A stretch of 64,000 bases of DNA from Syntrophobacterales bacterium. GTDB taxonomy: Bacteria > Desulfobacterota > Desulfobaccia > Desulfobaccales > 0-14-0-80-60-11. The translations under genes and the position numbers were made by a program. This document shows, one piece after another, positions 441-16,253 of the stretch; position 1 is the stretch's first letter, and every line of letters starts with the position of its first letter. The stretch spans positions 5,321 to 69,320 of the forward strand of contig JALNYP010000001.1 in assembly GCA_023229795.1 (NCBI GenBank), written 5' to 3'. A model generated the notes under the pieces. It was not told where the DNA came from, did not search any database, and saw only the letters and a program-made list of their open reading frames with translations.

Positions 441-1101
441 CTTTCAACCAGACGGCGAGCCCGTGCAAATGGCGGTTTTTTTGGCGCGCCGCCAGGATCA
501 GGTGGGGCATGCCGGCCCGCCGGGCGCACTCTCCGTCTTTGGCCTCCTGATCTCCGATAAATAAGCACTCCGGGGGCGGGGCGCCCAACTTGGCCGCCGC
601 CACCAGCAGGCCGGCGGGATCGGGCTTCAGCCGGCTGACCTCGGGGCAGGTGGCCGACACCACTACCTGGGCCGTTAATTCCAGGGTGCGGAGCTTGTCC
701 AGAGCCGGATAGTCGGAAAAAACGCCGATAGGGATGCCTTGCTCCTGGAACTGCGAAAATAAGGCCTGAGCGCCAGGATAGCGGCAAGACCGTAAATAGG
801 CAAGAGGTCTTTCAAACATCCAATATTTGACTACATCCCGGACCTTCTCCGGGGACACGCCCGCGGCTTGGGCGGCCCAGGCATACTGCCGGCTTTCCAG
901 ATCGGCCGCGGCCTCTGCCGCATGCTTTTCCCGCATTGTTCTGAAGAGCCAGAGGATTCTCAATTCAGCGAGGCGGGCCGGTTGACTGAGGACGCAACGA
1001 AACATCTCCCTTAACATCCAGAGGCGGAGCCTCCGTTGATCGTAAAGGGTGCCATCCACGTCAAAGATAACGGCTTGGGGAATGCCAGCGGGCGTGGTCA
1101 T
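424..1101 (-). CDS. HAD-superfamily hydrolase/phosphatase
   Basis: N-terminal DVDGTLYD (the DxDGT motif I of HAD enzymes) and a C-terminal GDQEAKDGECARRAGM motif IV-like region. 225-aa ORF. Confidence 0.8.
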   Translation of the reverse strand: MTTPAGIPQAVIFDVDGTLYDQRRLRLWMLREMFRCVLSQPARLAELRILWLFRTMREKHAAEAAADLESRQYAWAAQAAGVSPEKVRDVVKYWMFERPLAYLRSCRYPGAQALFSQFQEQGIPIGVFSDYPALDKLRTLELTAQVVVSATCPEVSRLKPDPAGLLVAAAKLGAPPPECLFIGDQEAKDGECARRAGMPHLILAARQKNRHLHGLAVWLKDAQQS

Positions 1102-3887: not shown

Positions 3888-5045
3888 TTAGGCCCCCTCG
3901 GCCAGGATGCGGCGATAGTGCTGAATCAGGCGATCGGCATAATCTCTCCAGGTGAAACCCTGTTGGACCCGCTGGAGGGCTGAGGCTCCCATGGTGCGCC
4001 GGGCCTCGGGGTGTTCATAGAAATAGAGAATCTTCTCTTTCAGGGCGGCTACATCCCGAATGGGGACGATAAAGCCATCCACCCCGGGTCGGACGATATC
4101 CTCACCCCCCGTGTTGGTCGTGATAACTACCGGCAGGCCGCACGCCATGGCCTGGGCCTGCACCGTGGCCAGGCCTTCTTCGATGGAGGCCAGACAAAAG
4201 ACCGAGCCCTGGGACAGGATGCGGCTTAATTCCCTTTGGGGGAAGGCGCCCTTGGCAATAATGGCGGGAGAGGCAAACTTTTTCAGGAAGGGGGCGATCT
4301 CTTCGGCAATAGGGCCGACCAGCCATAGTTCGGCGCGGGGCAGCTTGAGCTCAAAGAAGGCCTGCAGCAGATAATGCACCCCTTTTCTGAGGCTGGCATT
4401 GCCGCAGTGGATAACCCGAAAGATTTGGTCTGCCTTGGGGACCGGATAAAATTCGGCAAGATTGACGCCGTACGGATTGTGAATGAGCTTGCTCTCGGGA
4501 ATCCCTTGTTCAAGGAAGCTTCTTTTCACATATTGGGAAGGGACCAAAATATAATCCGCTTCCCGGTATTCCGCCAGTTCTTTCTCGACCACTTGGGGAT
4601 GAACAATGACTTTCTTGAGGCCCAAGCGATCGTACTCTTCCGTGAGTAACCTTCTTTGGGAAAGCATGTGGCTCGAACCCCGCTCCAGCACGGTTAGAGC
4701 TCCCAGCTTTCGGGCCCGGCGCAAAGAATGGAGGGCCCCGCTGCTCAATCCCATGAAGATGTCCGTATCCCGGGGAATATGCCAGGCGGCATGGCGATCA
4801 AAGAACTCAAAGACCTGGTATTGAGGGTCAATCAGGGCGCGGAGGGCGTCGGGGAATTTAACGCTGATCCGGTTACTGATCTCATGGAGCACGAGGGATT
4901 TAAGGTGCTTCCGGTCAAGGCCGTATTTTACCGTTTCAAAGGCCGGATAGCTGGTGATCAGCCTCCTTAAGCAGCCCCGATCCTGTAACTGCCTGGCGAC
5001 CTGAAACAGATGGAAACGCCCTAAGACGCTCATGGTGATGTTCAT
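3888..5045 (-). CDS. Glycosyltransferase family 4 (GT-B, Glycos_transf_1 type)
   Basis: C-terminal CLASIEEGLATVQAQAMACGLPVVITTNTGGEDIV...GFIVP is the E-x7-E type GT4 signature. The start is set at MNITMSVLGRFH; the ORF extends to 5087 and a GTG or ATG alternative is possible. Confidence 0.8.
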   Translation of the reverse strand: MNITMSVLGRFHLFQVARQLQDRGCLRRLITSYPAFETVKYGLDRKHLKSLVLHEISNRISVKFPDALRALIDPQYQVFEFFDRHAAWHIPRDTDIFMGLSSGALHSLRRARKLGALTVLERGSSHMLSQRRLLTEEYDRLGLKKVIVHPQVVEKELAEYREADYILVPSQYVKRSFLEQGIPESKLIHNPYGVNLAEFYPVPKADQIFRVIHCGNASLRKGVHYLLQAFFELKLPRAELWLVGPIAEEIAPFLKKFASPAIIAKGAFPQRELSRILSQGSVFCLASIEEGLATVQAQAMACGLPVVITTNTGGEDIVRPGVDGFIVPIRDVAALKEKILYFYEHPEARRTMGASALQRVQQGFTWRDYADRLIQHYRRILAEGA

Positions 5046-10493: not shown

Positions 10494-11579
10494 TCACGGC
10501 TTTGGCCCACCTTTTCCCGTCACCCGGGCGCCATATTGTTGCTGCAGAAAGTCGCGGTACACCTGGGAGCGCACCCGGTCCAGCCAATCCTGGTGAGACA
10601 GATACCAGGCAATAGTCCGCTTCAGCCCTGCCGCCAGAGTCACCCGGGGGCGCCACCCGAGCTGGGCCTGGATTTTATCGATGTTCAGGGCATACCGCCA
10701 GTCGTGGCCGGGCCGGTCCGGCACCAGGGTAATCAGCCGGGTCAGATCGCCCAGCCCCGGCCGCAGCTCCTGAAGCGAGTCGAGCAGCAGGCGCACGACG
10801 TCCAGGTTGGCCATCTCGCTTAAGCCGCCGATATTATAGGTTTCCCCCACCCTGCCCTGCTCCAAGACCTGGGCCAGGGCCTGGCAATGATCCTCCACAA
10901 AAAGCCAGTCCCGCACGTTGGTGCCCTGGCCGTAGATGGGAATGGGCTTGCCCTCCAGGGCCTGGCAGAGGCAGAAAGGGATCAGCTTTTCCGGGAACTG
11001 GTAAGGCCCGTAATTGTTGGTGCAATTGGTGACAAGCACCGGCAAGCCATAAGTATGGAAATAGGCGCGGGCCAGGAAGTCGGCGCCGGCCTTGGACGCG
11101 GCATAGGGGCTGCGAGGGGCGTAGGGCGCGGTCTCGGTGACCGGCGGATCGCCGGGCCCGAGGGAACCGTACACCTCATCGGTGCTGACGTGCAGGAAGC
11201 GGCAAGAGGAAGCCGCGGCGGGGTCTTTCCAGGCCTGGCGGGCCGCTTCCAACAGGGTGTGAGTCCCGATGACGTTGGTGCGCACAAAGACCCCCGGGTC
11301 CAGGATGGAGCGGTCCACGTGGGATTCGGCGGCAAAGTGCACCACCCGGGTGATGGGATACCGGGTAAAGAGGTCTTCAACCAGGGCCCGGTCGGCGATG
11401 TCACCCCGGACAAAGGTATAGCGGGCGTCGTCTTGAAAACCGCTCAGGCTTTCGAGGTTGCCGGCGTACGTCAGCAGGTCCAAATTCAGGAGATGCCAGT
11501 CCGGGTGCTCCTGTCTGAGGAAGTAAAGGAAATTGGCGCCGATAAAGCCGGCGCCGCCGGTTACCAGGACACAGGTCAT
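10494..11579 (-). CDS. rfbB: dTDP-glucose 4,6-dehydratase
   Basis: MTCVLVTGGAGFIGANF..., YAASKAGADFL (YxxxK), STDEVYG. An internal start was used; the upstream ORF extension is antisense-type Arg/Pro-rich sequence. There is an ATGA overlap with rfbD. Confidence 0.9.
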   Translation of the reverse strand: MTCVLVTGGAGFIGANFLYFLRQEHPDWHLLNLDLLTYAGNLESLSGFQDDARYTFVRGDIADRALVEDLFTRYPITRVVHFAAESHVDRSILDPGVFVRTNVIGTHTLLEAARQAWKDPAAASSCRFLHVSTDEVYGSLGPGDPPVTETAPYAPRSPYAASKAGADFLARAYFHTYGLPVLVTNCTNNYGPYQFPEKLIPFCLCQALEGKPIPIYGQGTNVRDWLFVEDHCQALAQVLEQGRVGETYNIGGLSEMANLDVVRLLLDSLQELRPGLGDLTRLITLVPDRPGHDWRYALNIDKIQAQLGWRPRVTLAAGLKRTIAWYLSHQDWLDRVRSQVYRDFLQQQYGARVTGKGGPKP

Positions 11580-12436
11580 AAGCGGTCCCCGTAGGCCTTC
11601 CAGAAGTCTTGGAAGGCGGCCTGCCAGGCCGGCATGAGGTCCAGTCCGGCCACCTGGAGGAGCCGGTTGGCCAACACCGAGTTGGCCGGACGCGGGGCCG
11701 GAAGTGGATATTCCGCCGTAGTACAAGGAGTCACCCGCAATTGGATGGCGGCCGTCTTTAGGATCAGGCAGGCGAAACCATACCAGGTCGTCTCGCCCTG
11801 GCAGGTGGCATGATAGGTGCCGAAGGCCTCGGTGCCGGCCAACGCCAGGAGCTGGCGGGCCAGGGCCGGCGCGCTGGTGGGCGTGCCCCGCTGATCGCAC
11901 ACCACCTTGAGCTCTCCGGACGGCCCGAGGCTGCGGGCCCGGGCCAAAATGGCGGTGACGAAGTTGGGACCGGGAAGGCCGTAGAGCCAGGCGGTGCGCA
12001 CGATGAAGTGGTCCGGGCATTGCTGCCGCACCCATTCTTCGCCCAGGAGTTTGCTGCGGCCATAGACCGACAGGGGGCCGGTGGCGTCCCATTCCTCATA
12101 GGGGCCGGGCTTGGCGCCATCGAAGACATAGTCGCTGGAGAGATGGATTAACTTCAGGCCCAACCGCCGGCAGGCCACCGCCAGATTCCGGGGCCCGAGG
12201 CTATTGACCTTGAGCGCCAGATCGGGGTTCGACTCCAGGTCGTCCACCAGGGTGGCGGCCGCGGCGTTGATCACCACGTCCGGGCGGCGTTGGGACAAGT
12301 GTCGCCATACCGCCTGGGGGTCGGTGACGTCCAAGTCGTGCAAGTCGGTGGCCACCACCTCCCAGCCCCGACGGCCTAATTCTTCAAGCAAGGCCCTACC
12401 CAACTGGCCCGATGCGCCGGTAATCAGTATCTTCAT
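11576..12436 (-). CDS. rfbD: dTDP-4-dehydrorhamnose reductase
   Basis: MKILITGASGQLG..., SSDYVFDG, YGRSKLLGE (YxxxK). Typical RmlD length. Confidence 0.85.
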   Translation of the reverse strand: MKILITGASGQLGRALLEELGRRGWEVVATDLHDLDVTDPQAVWRHLSQRRPDVVINAAAATLVDDLESNPDLALKVNSLGPRNLAVACRRLGLKLIHLSSDYVFDGAKPGPYEEWDATGPLSVYGRSKLLGEEWVRQQCPDHFIVRTAWLYGLPGPNFVTAILARARSLGPSGELKVVCDQRGTPTSAPALARQLLALAGTEAFGTYHATCQGETTWYGFACLILKTAAIQLRVTPCTTAEYPLPAPRPANSVLANRLLQVAGLDLMPAWQAAFQDFWKAYGDRL

Positions 12437-12605
12437 AATCTTTAATCGGTCAGCTTTCCCGCCTTCATCCATGACCCCTTTCCAAAGTGGAATACGGAGA
12501 ATTAAAATACCCTCCGCCTAACAAATCCATTCTAAATCTAATTCATCGGATATATTCACTATCCACTCCCGAATGGCGAAGCTTGGCTAAAGCTAAAACA
12601 AACAG

Positions 12606-13016
12606 TTACCAAGCTACCTTATACGGAACCGTGTCTGAAGCATCATAAGTCTCAGGTGAATATTCCAGAACTTGAGAATATTTGTTGGACCTATAGGCAT
12701 GAGCTACTTTCGGGCCTATAGTTAGCCTGTCTCCAGCCTGTACCAGCACCGTCTCCTTGATGCCGCTCTCAAGGTCCTCCAAAAGTAACTCCATTTCTCC
12801 TGACAATATATAGACGTGTTCTGTCTTTCTTTTGTGGTAGTGGTGCCCTCTTTCTTGTCCAGCTTTATCTAAATCCCAATATACCAAGTGCTTGTATGCC
12901 TCATTGGCGCGGTTTAAGATTTGAACCATTTCTCCTTTGTTTGAGAAAATTCTGCGCTCTGAATCGCCATTTCCATCTGTGGGAAGCTTTTCAATGTCAA
13001 CCTTGACTATTAACAT
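12606..13016 (-). CDS. Cupin-fold protein, FdtA/WxcM-like (possible dTDP-4-keto-6-deoxyhexose isomerase/epimerase)
   Basis: ERGHHYHKRKTEHVYILSGEMELLLEDLESG resembles the RGxHxHK...Q..x.L.G....L.D.G core of sugar 3,4-ketoisomerase cupins. A strong GGAGG RBS overlaps the stop of the upstream gene. AT-rich relative to the flanks. Confidence 0.6.
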   Translation of the reverse strand: MLIVKVDIEKLPTDGNGDSERRIFSNKGEMVQILNRANEAYKHLVYWDLDKAGQERGHHYHKRKTEHVYILSGEMELLLEDLESGIKETVLVQAGDRLTIGPKVAHAYRSNKYSQVLEYSPETYDASDTVPYKVAW

Positions 13017-13026
13017 AGCTTTCCTC

Positions 13027-14613
13027 CTATTCGAAAAATGAATTTTCGACTGCTTTAGACGACCCACAGCTATGAACCAAGCTGAGAACTGCTGCCGCTA
13101 GTGCCAATGGAACATAGTCCTTAATACCAGCTTTTATCTCCTCCGCTCTTTTATTCAGAGAATGCCTTTCTTTTGCTAATTTCTCCCTGCCAACTTCTCT
13201 CAAGAACCTAACAAAATCAGATGGCGTAAAGGGGATAGCTATGAACTTCTCCGATTCAAAAGAATCCTCAATACAACCTAATATATGTCGATAGCTTCGC
13301 TTGATCCTAACTTCACCAACTAGTCCGACTTCAAAAAAATGTGTCTCTCTTACTAAGGCTAAAAATACAATATCAGCCTCACTTACTTCTAATCCGGTTT
13401 CTTGTTTAATTTCACGAATGGCTGCGGCGAAAAATGGATTTGGAATAGTAGATGATGTATCCGGCTGCATATTAACCATCCCAGCCGAACCTGCTTGCCA
13501 ACTCTGCCAACAGTGCATAACCTTGCTTTGATTACGTTTTTGGATGACTAGACGTTCTGTCCCATCAGGTTCTTGTGTAATAATATTGATTGTAACAGTC
13601 AGAGGATTTGCTAAAAGAGAATCACTAAAGTTCGTAACAGATTTTTTTTCTACTTCTATGAGACCACTTCTTTTAATATTTTCTGTGAGAGATGATTCAA
13701 GTGCATGGTTAGTAGCTAAAAAAGTATAATAATCAGTAGATTGAAGCCTTAATTCTAATCCGCGGAAACCTTCTGTATCGTCACGCATAGGTTTAAAGTC
13801 TGTCAAACGTGCAAGCCGGCCATTATATAAGACTTGCGCTTTGTCCTTAGCAATCTTGATCTTCTCTTCCAGGACCTTATTGCATAACTGGCGAAGTTCC
13901 GAAGGTAAGCTTTTTAAAGTGTAGGAGGGGCGAGGCTTCCATCTATGGGTTATCATTCCTAATTTCCCATTATGATATTCATATAAGCCATCTCCCTCCA
14001 GTATAACAATAGGGATTTTTAATCTATCAAAAAAGTATGGAGTTATTGCTATTAATTCTTTGTTAATTGGAGTGGTTTTGATAGGGGAAACAATAGCTAT
14101 CGGGGCTATAGAAAATGCGCCTGCTAAATGACAACAATGAATAACCCCTTGCCATGTTGTCTCTATCCAAATGGGGATTGATAAATCAGAAGTGTGTACC
14201 TGGACTTCAAATTCGATCGTTAGCGCTATTTCCTCTTTATTGTTCTTCGTATTTGGGAGTCCACCTTCGAAATTATAGGTAAGGTATTTATCTCGTTTTC
14301 CTTCCGATTCGCGAATAGTTTTTTTAGCACTTTTAAGACTTGCCTTCCTGCCTCCACTTAATCCAAACAAGGATACACCAAAAGAACTTTCAACTTGCTT
14401 TTCTGAGGCAAGATTAGACCAACCTGAAAGCTGAGGGTTTTTAATAGTGAATTTGTTTGGGTCAAAGACAATAGATATCTTGAAGCGCCTTCCATAGTGG
14501 GTCAATCGCCTAAAACCCCGAGGAGAAGCAAAGGCAATAGAGATTGTTAATACAATATTGCCTTTAGAATCCTGAGATGCTTTTGTGAAGAATTGAATAT
14601 TGTTTGAATTCAT
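13027..14613 (-). CDS. Orphan 528-aa protein: unknown N-terminal domain plus C-terminal Nudix-like fold with a degenerate Nudix box
   Basis: Long uninterrupted ORF in AT-rich DNA. The C-terminal half contains ...FFAAAIREIKQETGLEV..., which matches REUxEExGU with E->Q. The upstream Glu of the box is missing. I recognise no family for residues 1-230. Confidence 0.7.
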   Translation of the reverse strand: MNSNNIQFFTKASQDSKGNIVLTISIAFASPRGFRRLTHYGRRFKISIVFDPNKFTIKNPQLSGWSNLASEKQVESSFGVSLFGLSGGRKASLKSAKKTIRESEGKRDKYLTYNFEGGLPNTKNNKEEIALTIEFEVQVHTSDLSIPIWIETTWQGVIHCCHLAGAFSIAPIAIVSPIKTTPINKELIAITPYFFDRLKIPIVILEGDGLYEYHNGKLGMITHRWKPRPSYTLKSLPSELRQLCNKVLEEKIKIAKDKAQVLYNGRLARLTDFKPMRDDTEGFRGLELRLQSTDYYTFLATNHALESSLTENIKRSGLIEVEKKSVTNFSDSLLANPLTVTINIITQEPDGTERLVIQKRNQSKVMHCWQSWQAGSAGMVNMQPDTSSTIPNPFFAAAIREIKQETGLEVSEADIVFLALVRETHFFEVGLVGEVRIKRSYRHILGCIEDSFESEKFIAIPFTPSDFVRFLREVGREKLAKERHSLNKRAEEIKAGIKDYVPLALAAAVLSLVHSCGSSKAVENSFFE

Positions 14614-14858
14614 AATTATAGGTTGAGTGACATAGGTTCCTATGAAAAGATATTTTCCGCCTTATAACGTTATATTTTATTATTACATAGAATAGCTCAT
14701 AGAACTGTCATACTTTGGGGGGGTATCTCAGAGAGGGGATTTGAATTTCCGTTAATATAGCAAACCCCCATAATATTTTAGCCGCTTCCCTGCCTATGCC
14801 CCCCCTCAAGGGAATGAATAAAGGCGAGCACATTTTATTAGTACTCGCGAGAAACGAT

Positions 14859-15356
14859 CTAAGTAAGCCGGAAGGGAGAATCGGGGTCGTTCTCAAACCG
14901 GATTTCGTCCACGGGTTCCCGGCGACCGGGGCCCCGGTAGAGGCGATTGGCGAAATTACAGACCAGGCCGGGGTAACCGCTTTCATTCTTATAGCCGTGC
15001 ACCACCCCGGGAGGCACGATGATGATCCCGGGGCAGGCCTCGCCCAAGAGGAATTCCTGCCGGACCCCGTGGGTGGGACTGCCGGGCCGATTATCCCACA
15101 GGACCACGCGGAAGGTCCCCGGTCCGGGAAAGCAGAAGAGATCGGTCTGATCGCGATGGGCATGGGGTCCCCGGCCCAACCCCGGTTCGGTTACCGAGAT
15201 ATATGCCATGGCCGGGAAATGCTCAGGGGCCAGCTCATCCTGCCGGAAAATTTCGGCCAGCCAGCCGCGCTGATCGGCGAACTTGGCCAGGGCTCGGCAC
15301 AAGACCCCGGCGATTTTGACCTCCGGATTCGTTTCTGGGTTATTCACCAAATGCAC
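14859..15356 (-). CDS. dTDP-4-dehydrorhamnose 3,5-epimerase family protein (short RmlC-like cupin)
   Basis: FADQRGWLAEIFRQ..., RGPHAHRDQTDLF..., VVLWDNRPGSPTHG..., PPGVVHGY are RmlC-family blocks. Confidence 0.75.
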   Translation of the reverse strand: MHLVNNPETNPEVKIAGVLCRALAKFADQRGWLAEIFRQDELAPEHFPAMAYISVTEPGLGRGPHAHRDQTDLFCFPGPGTFRVVLWDNRPGSPTHGVRQEFLLGEACPGIIIVPPGVVHGYKNESGYPGLVCNFANRLYRGPGRREPVDEIRFENDPDSPFRLT

Positions 15357-15596: not shown

Positions 15597-16253
15597 TTAT
15601 TGGCCGGTGATGAAGCCGTATACCGTCCTGACCAGGGAATCAAAATAAGGGGTGATGATGCCATGGTGGGTGACGCGCTCCAACAACACCAGGGCAATAA
15701 TGAGATACGGTCCGACCTGGTCAAAGAGCGACCTGGTTCTGACCTCATCCTCCGGGAGCAACTCGCGGACCAGGGCGCCCATGGCCAGAGGCGGTATGGG
15801 CAGGAGATTGTAGACGGCCGTGGTGATATTCACCCCCACCACCAACAAAAAGACCCGGGGGTCCCATTCCCAGCTTTTCATGACGCCGGCCAGGCTGCCG
15901 GCGATTCCCGCCAGGAGGAGATTGGCAATAGGCCCGGCAAACCGGGCGATCACCATGTAGAGGCGGGGATGGGCAAATTTACTGCGATCGAGATCCATGG
16001 TCCGGGGCCACCCGAAACCAGCCACCAGGTAGCAGATGGAGCCCAAGATACCCACATGCAGGAAGGCATTAAAATTGAACCGGTCTTTGGGTGCGATCCG
16101 GCTGTCTCCCAAAAAGGTGCCCGCAAAGGCCTGGGCCTCGGCGTTAACCATACACGCCAGGAGCACCGAGACGACAAACGCCACCGCGGAATCAATGGCC
16201 AGATTCTGGGGACCTAAAACGAACGGCACCGGCCAGGCAGTACTGGGATCCAT
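15597..16253 (-). CDS. Site-2 protease (M50) family membrane protein lacking the catalytic residues (pseudoprotease)
   Basis: Collinear with the COG1994-type S2P pattern (GFGWP...D, AGPIANLLLA, NLLPIPPL). The HExxH position reads NAEAQ and the LDG Asp reads LAMG. Confidence 0.7.
   Translation of the reverse strand: MDPSTAWPVPFVLGPQNLAIDSAVAFVVSVLLACMVNAEAQAFAGTFLGDSRIAPKDRFNFNAFLHVGILGSICYLVAGFGWPRTMDLDRSKFAHPRLYMVIARFAGPIANLLLAGIAGSLAGVMKSWEWDPRVFLLVVGVNITTAVYNLLPIPPLAMGALVRELLPEDEVRTRSLFDQVGPYLIIALVLLERVTHHGIITPYFDSLVRTVYGFITGQ

Follow-up and report, generated by a model that had tools for sequence, protein, structure and literature searches.

In this study, we analyzed a stretch of 64,000 nucleotides (nt), hereafter the window, from a Syntrophobacterales bacterium (NCBI GenBank assembly GCA_023229795.1, contig JALNYP010000001.1, positions 5,321 to 69,320 of the forward strand) and concluded that the 528-residue product of its gene at positions 13027-14613, P0001, is a bacterial, mobile, head-swapping Nudix protein of the NUDT22 type, with an orphan head and a cupin partner. 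A preliminary description, made from the sequence alone, had presented this protein as an orphan, in which an unrecognized beta-rich half precedes a Nudix-like fold with a crippled Nudix box. In the following, P0002 to P0005 are the closest relatives of P0001, and L001 and similar labels stand for loci.

Residues 190-528 of P0001 are a complete two-domain module of the NUDT22 type and not a vaguely Nudix-like remnant. When this protein was modeled by AlphaFold2 (AF2) with its relatives as the alignment, these residues reached a predicted local distance difference test score (pLDDT) above 90, and the top Foldseek matches in the PDB were the human NUDT22 entries 5r50 and 5lf9 (E 1.8e-12 and 3.5e-11, target TM-score 0.68-0.71), aligned over 329-335 columns and both domains. 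Dozens of solved Nudix enzymes also matched residues ~336-475, with the single-domain ones ranking below NUDT22 (E of at least 7e-5, ~130 columns), and a viral fold library returned generic Nudix matches only. A profile of 115 relatives searched against the PDB sequences again found NUDT22 (E 1.2e-17, profile positions 124-364 on chain positions 66-308), the next best match having E 6e-4. P0001 alone as query returned nothing useful from NCBIfam, PADLOC, PHROGs or the PDB sequences, and its score against Pfam NUDIX (PF00293) was 15.2 bits, under the cut-off of 21.1 (E 0.022). The Nudix assignment is nevertheless secure, because the relatives match Pfam NUDIX (29 of 115 at E <= 1e-3, best E 3e-11, P0003 passing the cut-off at 24.7 bits) and because both fold and profile match NUDT22. 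The Nudix domain had been thought to start near residue 255; its fold stands, and its boundary moves, as the module begins at ~190 and the Nudix fold proper covers ~336-475. As for placing the whole protein in a characterized family, profile and fold now put the C-terminal two thirds in the NUDT22 family and the N-terminal third remains unplaced.

Human NUDT22 is a UDP-glucose pyrophosphatase that hydrolyzes UDP-glucose to UMP and glucose-1-phosphate (PMC10101856), and it has been noted as being without a conventional Nudix box (PMC5688067). P0001 is like the structures of this UDP-glucose/UDP-galactose pyrophosphatase (5lf9, 5lor, 5lou, 5r50) in its two-domain arrangement of an N-domain followed by a Nudix fold, and in a non-canonical box with a long insert ahead of the R/Q-E-x-x-E/D-E helix. 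In contrast to NUDT22, to which its identity is ~16-17%, P0001 adds 189 orphan residues at the N-terminus and a helical extension of ~50 residues at the C-terminus, and it comes from a bacterium, is mobile and has a cupin as its partner.

The residue counts that follow were taken over 150 relatives. The canonical pattern G-x5-E-x7-R-E-U-x-E-E-x-G-U is not matched by P0001, which has G378-x6-D385-x14-R400 and then R-E-I-K-Q-E-T-G-L. The box REIKQETGL with Gln for the first Glu of the EE pair was present as described (nt 13416-13390), and so was the long insert that replaces the upstream Gx5E part; the insert is not a local degeneration, since the spacing from G378/D385 to R400 is a trait of the whole family. 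In human NUDT22, the box helix reads Q-E-x-x-D-E and a long insert lies at the same place; its Glu residues align with E401 and E405 of the P0001 box and with the downstream E453, with Gln standing opposite R400 and Asp opposite Gln404. Within the family, E405 was found in all 148 members with a residue at that position, R360 in 145/150 and E453 in 140/150, and P0001 has all three. D385 (115/150), G378 (106/150), R400 (118/150) and E401 (112/150, with Gly in 27) are also frequent. Position 404 is Glu in 124/150, Gln in 17/150 and Ala in 4/150; Gln404 is common to P0001, P0002 and P0003 and reappears in unrelated branches (P0042, P0048, P0049), and P0002 further has His instead of R400. Because the near-invariant residues are kept, Gln404 recurs, and NUDT22 is active although its box is unconventional, the module of P0001 is probably active, perhaps retuned, rather than a dead binder.

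When 1.84 billion representative proteins were searched exhaustively with phmmer, 174 matched the C-terminal module at E <= 1e-3, so that the name of orphan no longer applies to the whole protein; among the best 150 matches listed, all but one cover P0001 residues ~190-475 or further. A word-indexed homolog search returned P0002 only, even with an alignment as query, and a genome-contig profile scan with 13 sequences returned five loci. Over the module the closest relatives are 49-63% identical to P0001 (47-53% for P0003, depending on the alignment), and all diverge N-terminal of a common junction, P-Y-F-F-x-R-L (PYFFDRL in P0001, residues ~186-191). Ahead of this junction, P0002 and P0003 have two transmembrane helices, and P0004 and P0005 have a TIR domain, assigned by Pfam match alone (TIR_2, E 4e-27 and 1.6e-26). 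In the next clade the head is nucleoside-deoxyribosyltransferase-like, with the motif DTTGNRPNxYFELGYA, and Pfam matches elsewhere in the family include PNP_UDP_1, CHAT, HD-CE, PRTase-CE, DUF4062, protein kinase, methyltransferase and helix-turn-helix (HTH) heads. TIR_2, TIR and ThsB_TIR heads occur in 7, 5 and 4 members, respectively, and among the HTH-type heads HTH_3 occurs in 4, HTH_31 in 3 and GerE in 2. Many distant members are stand-alone proteins of ~300 residues, the size of NUDT22, and their genes adjoin a uracil/xanthine permease gene, genes for a TagF-like glycerophosphotransferase and a GT1 enzyme, or genes for an LtaS-like sulfatase and an acyltransferase. In a sample of 400 further genomes of the phylum, matches fell on variable N-terminal columns of the model only, and none covered the conserved module, the window's own excepted. 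A phage search gave no match and a plasmid search gave one weak match.

Several neighbors of these relatives were also recorded. The deoxyribosyltransferase-like and NUDT22-like fusions at L003 (6948-8150, minus strand) and L016 (3-554, plus strand) are 52% identical to each other, and each adjoins a radical-SAM-like protein, recognized by eye and 47% identical between the two loci, in differing orientations; this may be a second conserved partner, belonging to another clade of the family. At L009, an XRE-type HTH gene (576-875, plus strand, HTH_3/HTH_31) overlaps the start of the gene for P0004, a TIR and NUDT22-like fusion, by 4 nt, and the opposite strand carries a run of an RmlC-like gene, a 109-residue open reading frame and the partner cupin gene. 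PIN-domain (VapC-like) toxin genes lie within 1-1.5 kb of P0002 (L001, 2396-3105) and P0006 (L010, 4457-5061), each preceded by a small open reading frame that is a possible antitoxin.

The gene for P0001 is a single unbroken frame of 528 codons on the minus strand, with the plus strand of the same interval riddled with stops, according to the open reading frame listing and the translation. The frame had been described without its strand, and every peptide quoted from it was found in the minus-strand product. The start codon is credible, since P0046, the sole N-terminal relative, aligns from Met1 (MRSTNIEF in one protein, MNSNNIQF in the other). P0046 is a metagenomic protein of 104 residues with 38% identity over the first ~100 residues, and no other N-terminal relative stood among the listed phmmer matches. 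Residues 1-189 had no match in Pfam, NCBIfam, PHROGs, PADLOC or the PDB sequences, and their middle part is of low complexity and rich in Lys and Ser. In the full-length AF2 run their pLDDT was 30-55, and it was 39 when the region was modeled alone; a beta-rich N-terminus, for which AF2 strands speak, is therefore weakly supported, and the prediction yields no usable fold for this region. The region is thus unrecognized, as had been stated, and it is an orphan of 189 residues (36% of the protein) and not a half, as the conserved module begins at ~190 rather than 255. Just ahead of the module lies a segment of moderate hydrophobicity, residues 156-178, which peaks at 1.89 on the Kyte-Doolittle scale versus 2.9 for the two clear transmembrane helices of P0002 and P0003 and might weakly anchor the protein in a membrane. 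As the identity of the N-terminus, a CBASS Cap-type beta-barrel or 2-TM (two-transmembrane) effector was considered and dropped, as there was no model match and no cyclase.

P0001 is paired with a gene for a 136-residue cupin, which begins ten bases past the P0001 stop codon; the AGGAGG Shine-Dalgarno (SD) sequence of the cupin gene overlaps this stop, which implies translational coupling of the two genes. The cupin scored 33 bits against Cupin_2 and 24.9 bits against FdtA, over the cut-off of 23, and its closest PDB entry is FdtA 2pa7 (E 2.8e-5), with H59, H61 and H106 opposite the FdtA histidines. It is like the FdtA/QdtA dTDP-6-deoxy-3,4-keto-hexulose isomerases in its size, its cupin fold, the RG-H-x-H-K motif and the third His; in contrast to them, it shows weak similarity and is adjoined by no aminotransferase or acetyltransferase gene of the FdtB/FdtC type. 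P0002 is directly followed by a homologous cupin (61% identity), and the cupin of P0004 lies ~1 kb away on the other strand in the run with the RmlC-like gene (30-35% identity). A cupin known by Pfam labels only lies divergently upstream of P0005, and there is no cupin at the P0003 locus. Overall, a cupin was found near 4/5 of the closest relatives (three homologous by BLAST, one by Pfam labels) versus 0/19 of the more distant loci (Fisher p = 4.7e-4).

Together, P0001 and the cupin fill a low-GC (guanine plus cytosine) insert in the host rml operon. The preliminary description had taken the gene to lie in a horizontally acquired island, and the composition bears this out, with 35-45% GC in the patch around P0001 versus 60-65% in the genome; within the coding sequence, the N-terminal part has 38.1% GC and the C-terminal part 38.9%. 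In three genomes of the same genus and one of the same family, the site is without the insert, and the rmlC-like gene is followed by rmlD within at most ~230 nt. The rmlC-like gene of the host encodes a divergent dTDP_sugar_isom protein of 165 residues, which is conserved at 72-76% identity in the relatives and scores 17.7 bits versus the NCBIfam rmlC equivalog cut-off of 155.75. No rmlA was seen among the operon genes examined. Further along, at 15597-16253 (minus strand), lies a gene for a 218-residue protein with a marginal Peptidase_M50 match (21 bits, under the cut-off), which is kept in the syntenic contig L052. Scans for promoters and terminators gave nothing above chance, an Rfam search of the island gave no match, and no direct or inverted repeats were found flanking it.

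Three syntenic metagenomic contigs (L051, L052, L054) carry the rmlC-like gene, the cupin gene, rmlD and rmlB, and the NUDT22-like gene is absent from all of them; in L052, the neighborhood shared with the window extends from the aminotransferase gene as far as the gene for the sigma-54 regulator. The cupin genes of these contigs have 46-52% GC versus 62-66% in the flanks. The nucleotide homology between the window and L051 starts 42 nt upstream of the cupin ATG, within the last ~10 codons of P0001 (33/45 nt identical), and in frame the L051 spacer reads F-P-K-V-I-E-N-A-F-I-D, to be compared with S-S-K-A-V-E-N-S-F-F-E in P0001 and V-Q-P-V-E-N-A-F in P0002. A G-rich motif just past the stop codon of the rmlC-like gene is common to the window and L051. 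The L051 spacer is thus probably the stump of a deleted NUDT22-like gene, short as this remnant is. In the simplest account, which so short a remnant suggests and does not prove, P0001 and the cupin gene came in together, and the Nudix gene was lost later in some lineages that kept the cupin. The coordinates of all these features are collected in Table 1.

Table 1. Features of the P0001 locus in the window and of the corresponding spacers in syntenic contigs.
Feature	Position	Strand	Basis or remark
Full open reading frame of P0001	13027..14613	-	528 residues; ATG 14613-14611, TAG 13029-13027
Orphan N-terminal region, residues 1-189	14047..14613	-	Strands predicted; one relative, P0046; AF2 pLDDT <50; no family match
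Moderately hydrophobic segment, residues 156-178 (GVIHCCHLAGAFSIAPIAIVSPI)	14080..14148	-	Kyte-Doolittle 19-residue maximum 1.89
NUDT22-type N-domain, residues 190-335	13609..14046	-	pLDDT >90; Foldseek and family profile match NUDT22 over both domains
Nudix fold domain, residues 336-475 (R360, G378, D385, E453)	13189..13608	-	AF2, Foldseek, profile, residue counts
Nudix box core R400-E401-I-K-Q404-E405-T-G407-L408	13390..13416	-	Q404 where 124/150 relatives have Glu
C-terminal helical extension, residues 476-528, ending in the family motif K-A-V-E-N-S-F	13030..13188	-	Alignment, AF2
AGGAGG Shine-Dalgarno sequence of the cupin gene	13023..13028	-	Overlaps the P0001 TAG; 6 nt before the cupin ATG
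Partner gene, 136-residue FdtA/WxcM-like cupin	12606..13016	-	Pfam, PDB similarity, conservation beside relatives
Low-GC 2.4-kb insert holding P0001 and the cupin gene	12473..14858		GC profile; site empty in relatives
Host rmlC-like gene	14859-15356	-	Upstream border of the insert
Host rmlD	11576-12472	-	Downstream border of the insert; then rmlB
Stretch absent from L051, L052 and L054	13058..14786		P0001 minus its last ~10 codons, plus ~170 nt upstream
Spacers between rmlC-like and cupin genes in contigs without the Nudix gene	L051:888-929; L052:4720-4800; L054:3150-3285		Homology into the last P0001 codons

The fold and the family, the conserved residues, the pairing with the cupin, the insertion site and the absence from congeners are all observed features, and from them we infer a substrate, an activity and a role for the N-terminus of P0001. 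Considering all the above, we propose, tentatively and with the chances still somewhat below even, that P0001 and the cupin form a mobile cassette with pyrimidine nucleoside diphosphate (NDP)-hexose pyrophosphatase activity, an immune sensor-effector being a serious rival. P0001 would be a horizontally acquired chimera whose residues 190-528 are catalytically competent, perhaps slowed or retuned by Gln404, and would cleave a pyrimidine NDP-hexose (a dTDP- or UDP-sugar) to a nucleoside monophosphate and a sugar-1-phosphate. The co-translated FdtA-like cupin would probably isomerize NDP-4-keto-6-deoxyhexoses, and the cassette could thereby act on the dTDP-6-deoxyhexose intermediates from the host RmlB, which would be diverted or else recycled to dTMP. 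The 189 orphan residues and the weakly hydrophobic segment may serve as a module for localization (a tether) or for output, replacing the 2-TM anchor or the TIR domain of the relatives.

A link to nucleotide sugars, already raised in the preliminary description, is now backed by the homology with NUDT22, by the FdtA-like cupin partner and by the insertion into the rml operon. An enzyme of nucleotide-sugar or pyrimidine metabolism also fits the distant members, because these adjoin genes for envelope polymers and pyrimidines. In Escherichia coli, the GDP-mannose mannosyl hydrolase Gmm/WcaH (NudD) is a Nudix protein in the colanic acid cluster and is thought to trim the NDP-sugar pool. P0001 is like Gmm/WcaH in being a Nudix protein within a polysaccharide-precursor operon; it differs in that Gmm is small, single-domain, native and of another subfamily, whereas P0001 is of the NUDT22 type, carries a foreign head and was inserted secondarily.

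Several observations weigh against the proposal of a pyrophosphatase cassette. There is no purine-rich SD sequence ahead of the P0001 ATG, as had been noted earlier, and the Nudix gene is absent from the three syntenic contigs that keep the cupin, one of them with a probable remnant; P0001 may therefore be dispensable or costly. Gln404 stands in place of a metal-ligand Glu and could reduce activity. The pathway logic is incomplete, as the cassette is without an aminotransferase or reductase to use a 3-keto sugar, and the TIR, PNP, CHAT, HD-CE and PRTase-CE heads of the family are hard to square with sugar metabolism alone. Furthermore, ~89 cupin clusters at >=51% identity stand against 5 close Nudix partners, from which it follows that the cupin mostly works without the Nudix gene, and one relative of the cupin, at L056, is preceded by an unrelated gene in a locus free of rml genes. 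This upstream gene (3891-4766, plus strand) encodes a 291-residue protein rich in Lys and Glu and with no family match; it lies among response-regulator genes, and the cupin that follows it is 66% identical to that of the window. The L056 gene was ruled out as a hidden NUDT22-like gene, and the cupin family evidently pairs with other genes too.

The strongest alternative, which we regard as possible although less probable than the enzyme cassette, is that P0001 is an effector of immunity or conflict. The NUDT22-like module would sense, and maybe degrade, a nucleotide or sugar-nucleotide that rises or falls upon infection, the swappable head would be the toxic output (a TIR NADase, a 2-TM membrane disruptor or, in P0001, an orphan beta-rich and possibly membrane-active domain), and the cupin would make, alter or remove the ligand or act as an immunity or antidote partner. 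An effector had been suggested earlier as one plausible role, and the TIR, 2-TM and PNP heads of the relatives make the suggestion reasonable. The constant C-terminal module is joined to heads of effector type (TIR types, PNP_UDP_1, Nuc_deoxyrib_tr, CHAT, HD-CE, PRTase-CE, DUF4062), and three different heads are exchanged at one point within one close clade. The distribution is sporadic, with nothing in the 400 other genomes of the phylum or in congeners, and the gene lies in a low-GC island. PIN toxin-antitoxin pairs occur near the members at L001 and L010, an overlapping XRE-type HTH gene precedes P0004, and the apparent deletion of the Nudix gene with retention of the downstream cupin resembles an orphaned immunity gene. 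Against this stand the lack of any PADLOC or PHROGs match (0 families of PADLOC-DB at E <= 10), the lack of a phage match and the single weak plasmid match. The island consists of P0001 and the cupin only, flanked by host rml genes, with no signal-producing enzyme (a cyclase or a separate TIR protein). The catalytic residues are nearly invariant, as in an enzyme rather than a pure receptor, the toxicity of the unrecognizable P0001 head is conjecture, and distant members sit in ordinary metabolic neighborhoods. Neither bacterial fusions of the NUDT22-like module nor a Nudix-cupin module or defense system was described in the literature that we searched.

The ThsA SLOG/Macro proteins of Thoeris, the SAVED/STING proteins of CBASS and the Pycsar effectors are alike in combining a constant nucleotide-binding module with interchangeable TIR or 2-TM heads. 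In contrast to these systems, the P0001 locus is without a signal synthase (a ThsB-type TIR protein, a CD-NTase or a cyclase) and without a PADLOC match, the family module keeps its full catalytic set, and the P0001 head is no recognized effector. Membership in Thoeris, CBASS or Pycsar was judged on a curated model, an adjacent signal enzyme and a recognized effector domain, and P0001 lacks all 3/3 of these features. In a more specific form of the immune explanation, the cupin would produce a rare isomer from a common NDP-4-keto-hexose or turn it back, this molecule would be bound and then destroyed by the NUDT22-like module, and occupancy of the module would switch the N-terminal output, be it a TIR NADase, a 2-TM disruptor or the orphan head. 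Relatives that lost the Nudix gene and kept the cupin would then, in a familiar pattern, have shed a toxic effector and preserved its antidote. We consider this specific form unlikely.

In the preliminary description, the box was called crippled and the protein was seen as a possible sensor that binds a nucleotide or nucleotide sugar rather than hydrolyzing it; P0001 would then be a catalytically dead Nudix fold with a regulatory role, comparable to NrtR. The Nudix domain of NrtR binds ADP-ribose (PMC9503650). P0001 is like NrtR (3gz8, itself among its fold matches) in fusing a Nudix fold with an altered box to a second functional domain, the HTH heads of some members recall NrtR, and both the Gln for the first Glu of the EE pair and the additional His for R400 in P0002 would suit a binder. 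In contrast, NrtR has a single-domain Nudix part, degenerate catalytic residues and a C-terminal winged-helix DNA-binding domain, whereas P0001 has no HTH or other DNA-binding domain and keeps R360, D385, R400, E401, E405 and E453. Gln404, found in 17/150 members, occurs in several branches beside intact residues, as a functional variant would and a decaying one would not, and the even less canonical box of NUDT22 does not prevent its activity (PMC5688067, PMC10101856). The word crippled thus overstates the case, and a dead binder is improbable. Less likely still is that P0001 is a passenger without function, encoded by a foreign gene that is decaying or poorly expressed and whose front end is a meaningless leftover. 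In favor of this, there is no SD sequence before the ATG, the N-terminus does not fold in AF2 and has a low-complexity middle rich in Lys and Ser, and related contigs with the cupin lack the gene (one with a probable remnant). Against it, an open frame of 528 codons in DNA of 38% GC is unlikely to persist by chance, P0001 has retained every conserved residue of the family, P0046 aligns with its N-terminus from Met1 at 38% identity, and the equal GC of the N- and C-terminal parts speaks against a recent scramble with host DNA.

NUDT22 has so far been regarded as a peculiarity of animals, an enzyme that works in pyrimidine salvage. The locus described here reveals a bacterial branch of the NUDT22 two-domain fold that has been repeatedly fused to interchangeable heads, including classic immune effectors, and for which Pfam, NCBIfam and PADLOC offer no dedicated model. 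Its closest clade is associated with a sugar-nucleotide cupin and with dTDP-sugar operons. If the proposed pyrophosphatase cassette is real, it would be a mobile element rewiring how surface-sugar precursors are supplied; if the immune explanation is true, bacterial immunity would read sugar nucleotides in addition to cyclic nucleotides and derivatives of ADP-ribose. In both cases, the family merits a profile model, which would end the annotation of such genes as hypothetical.

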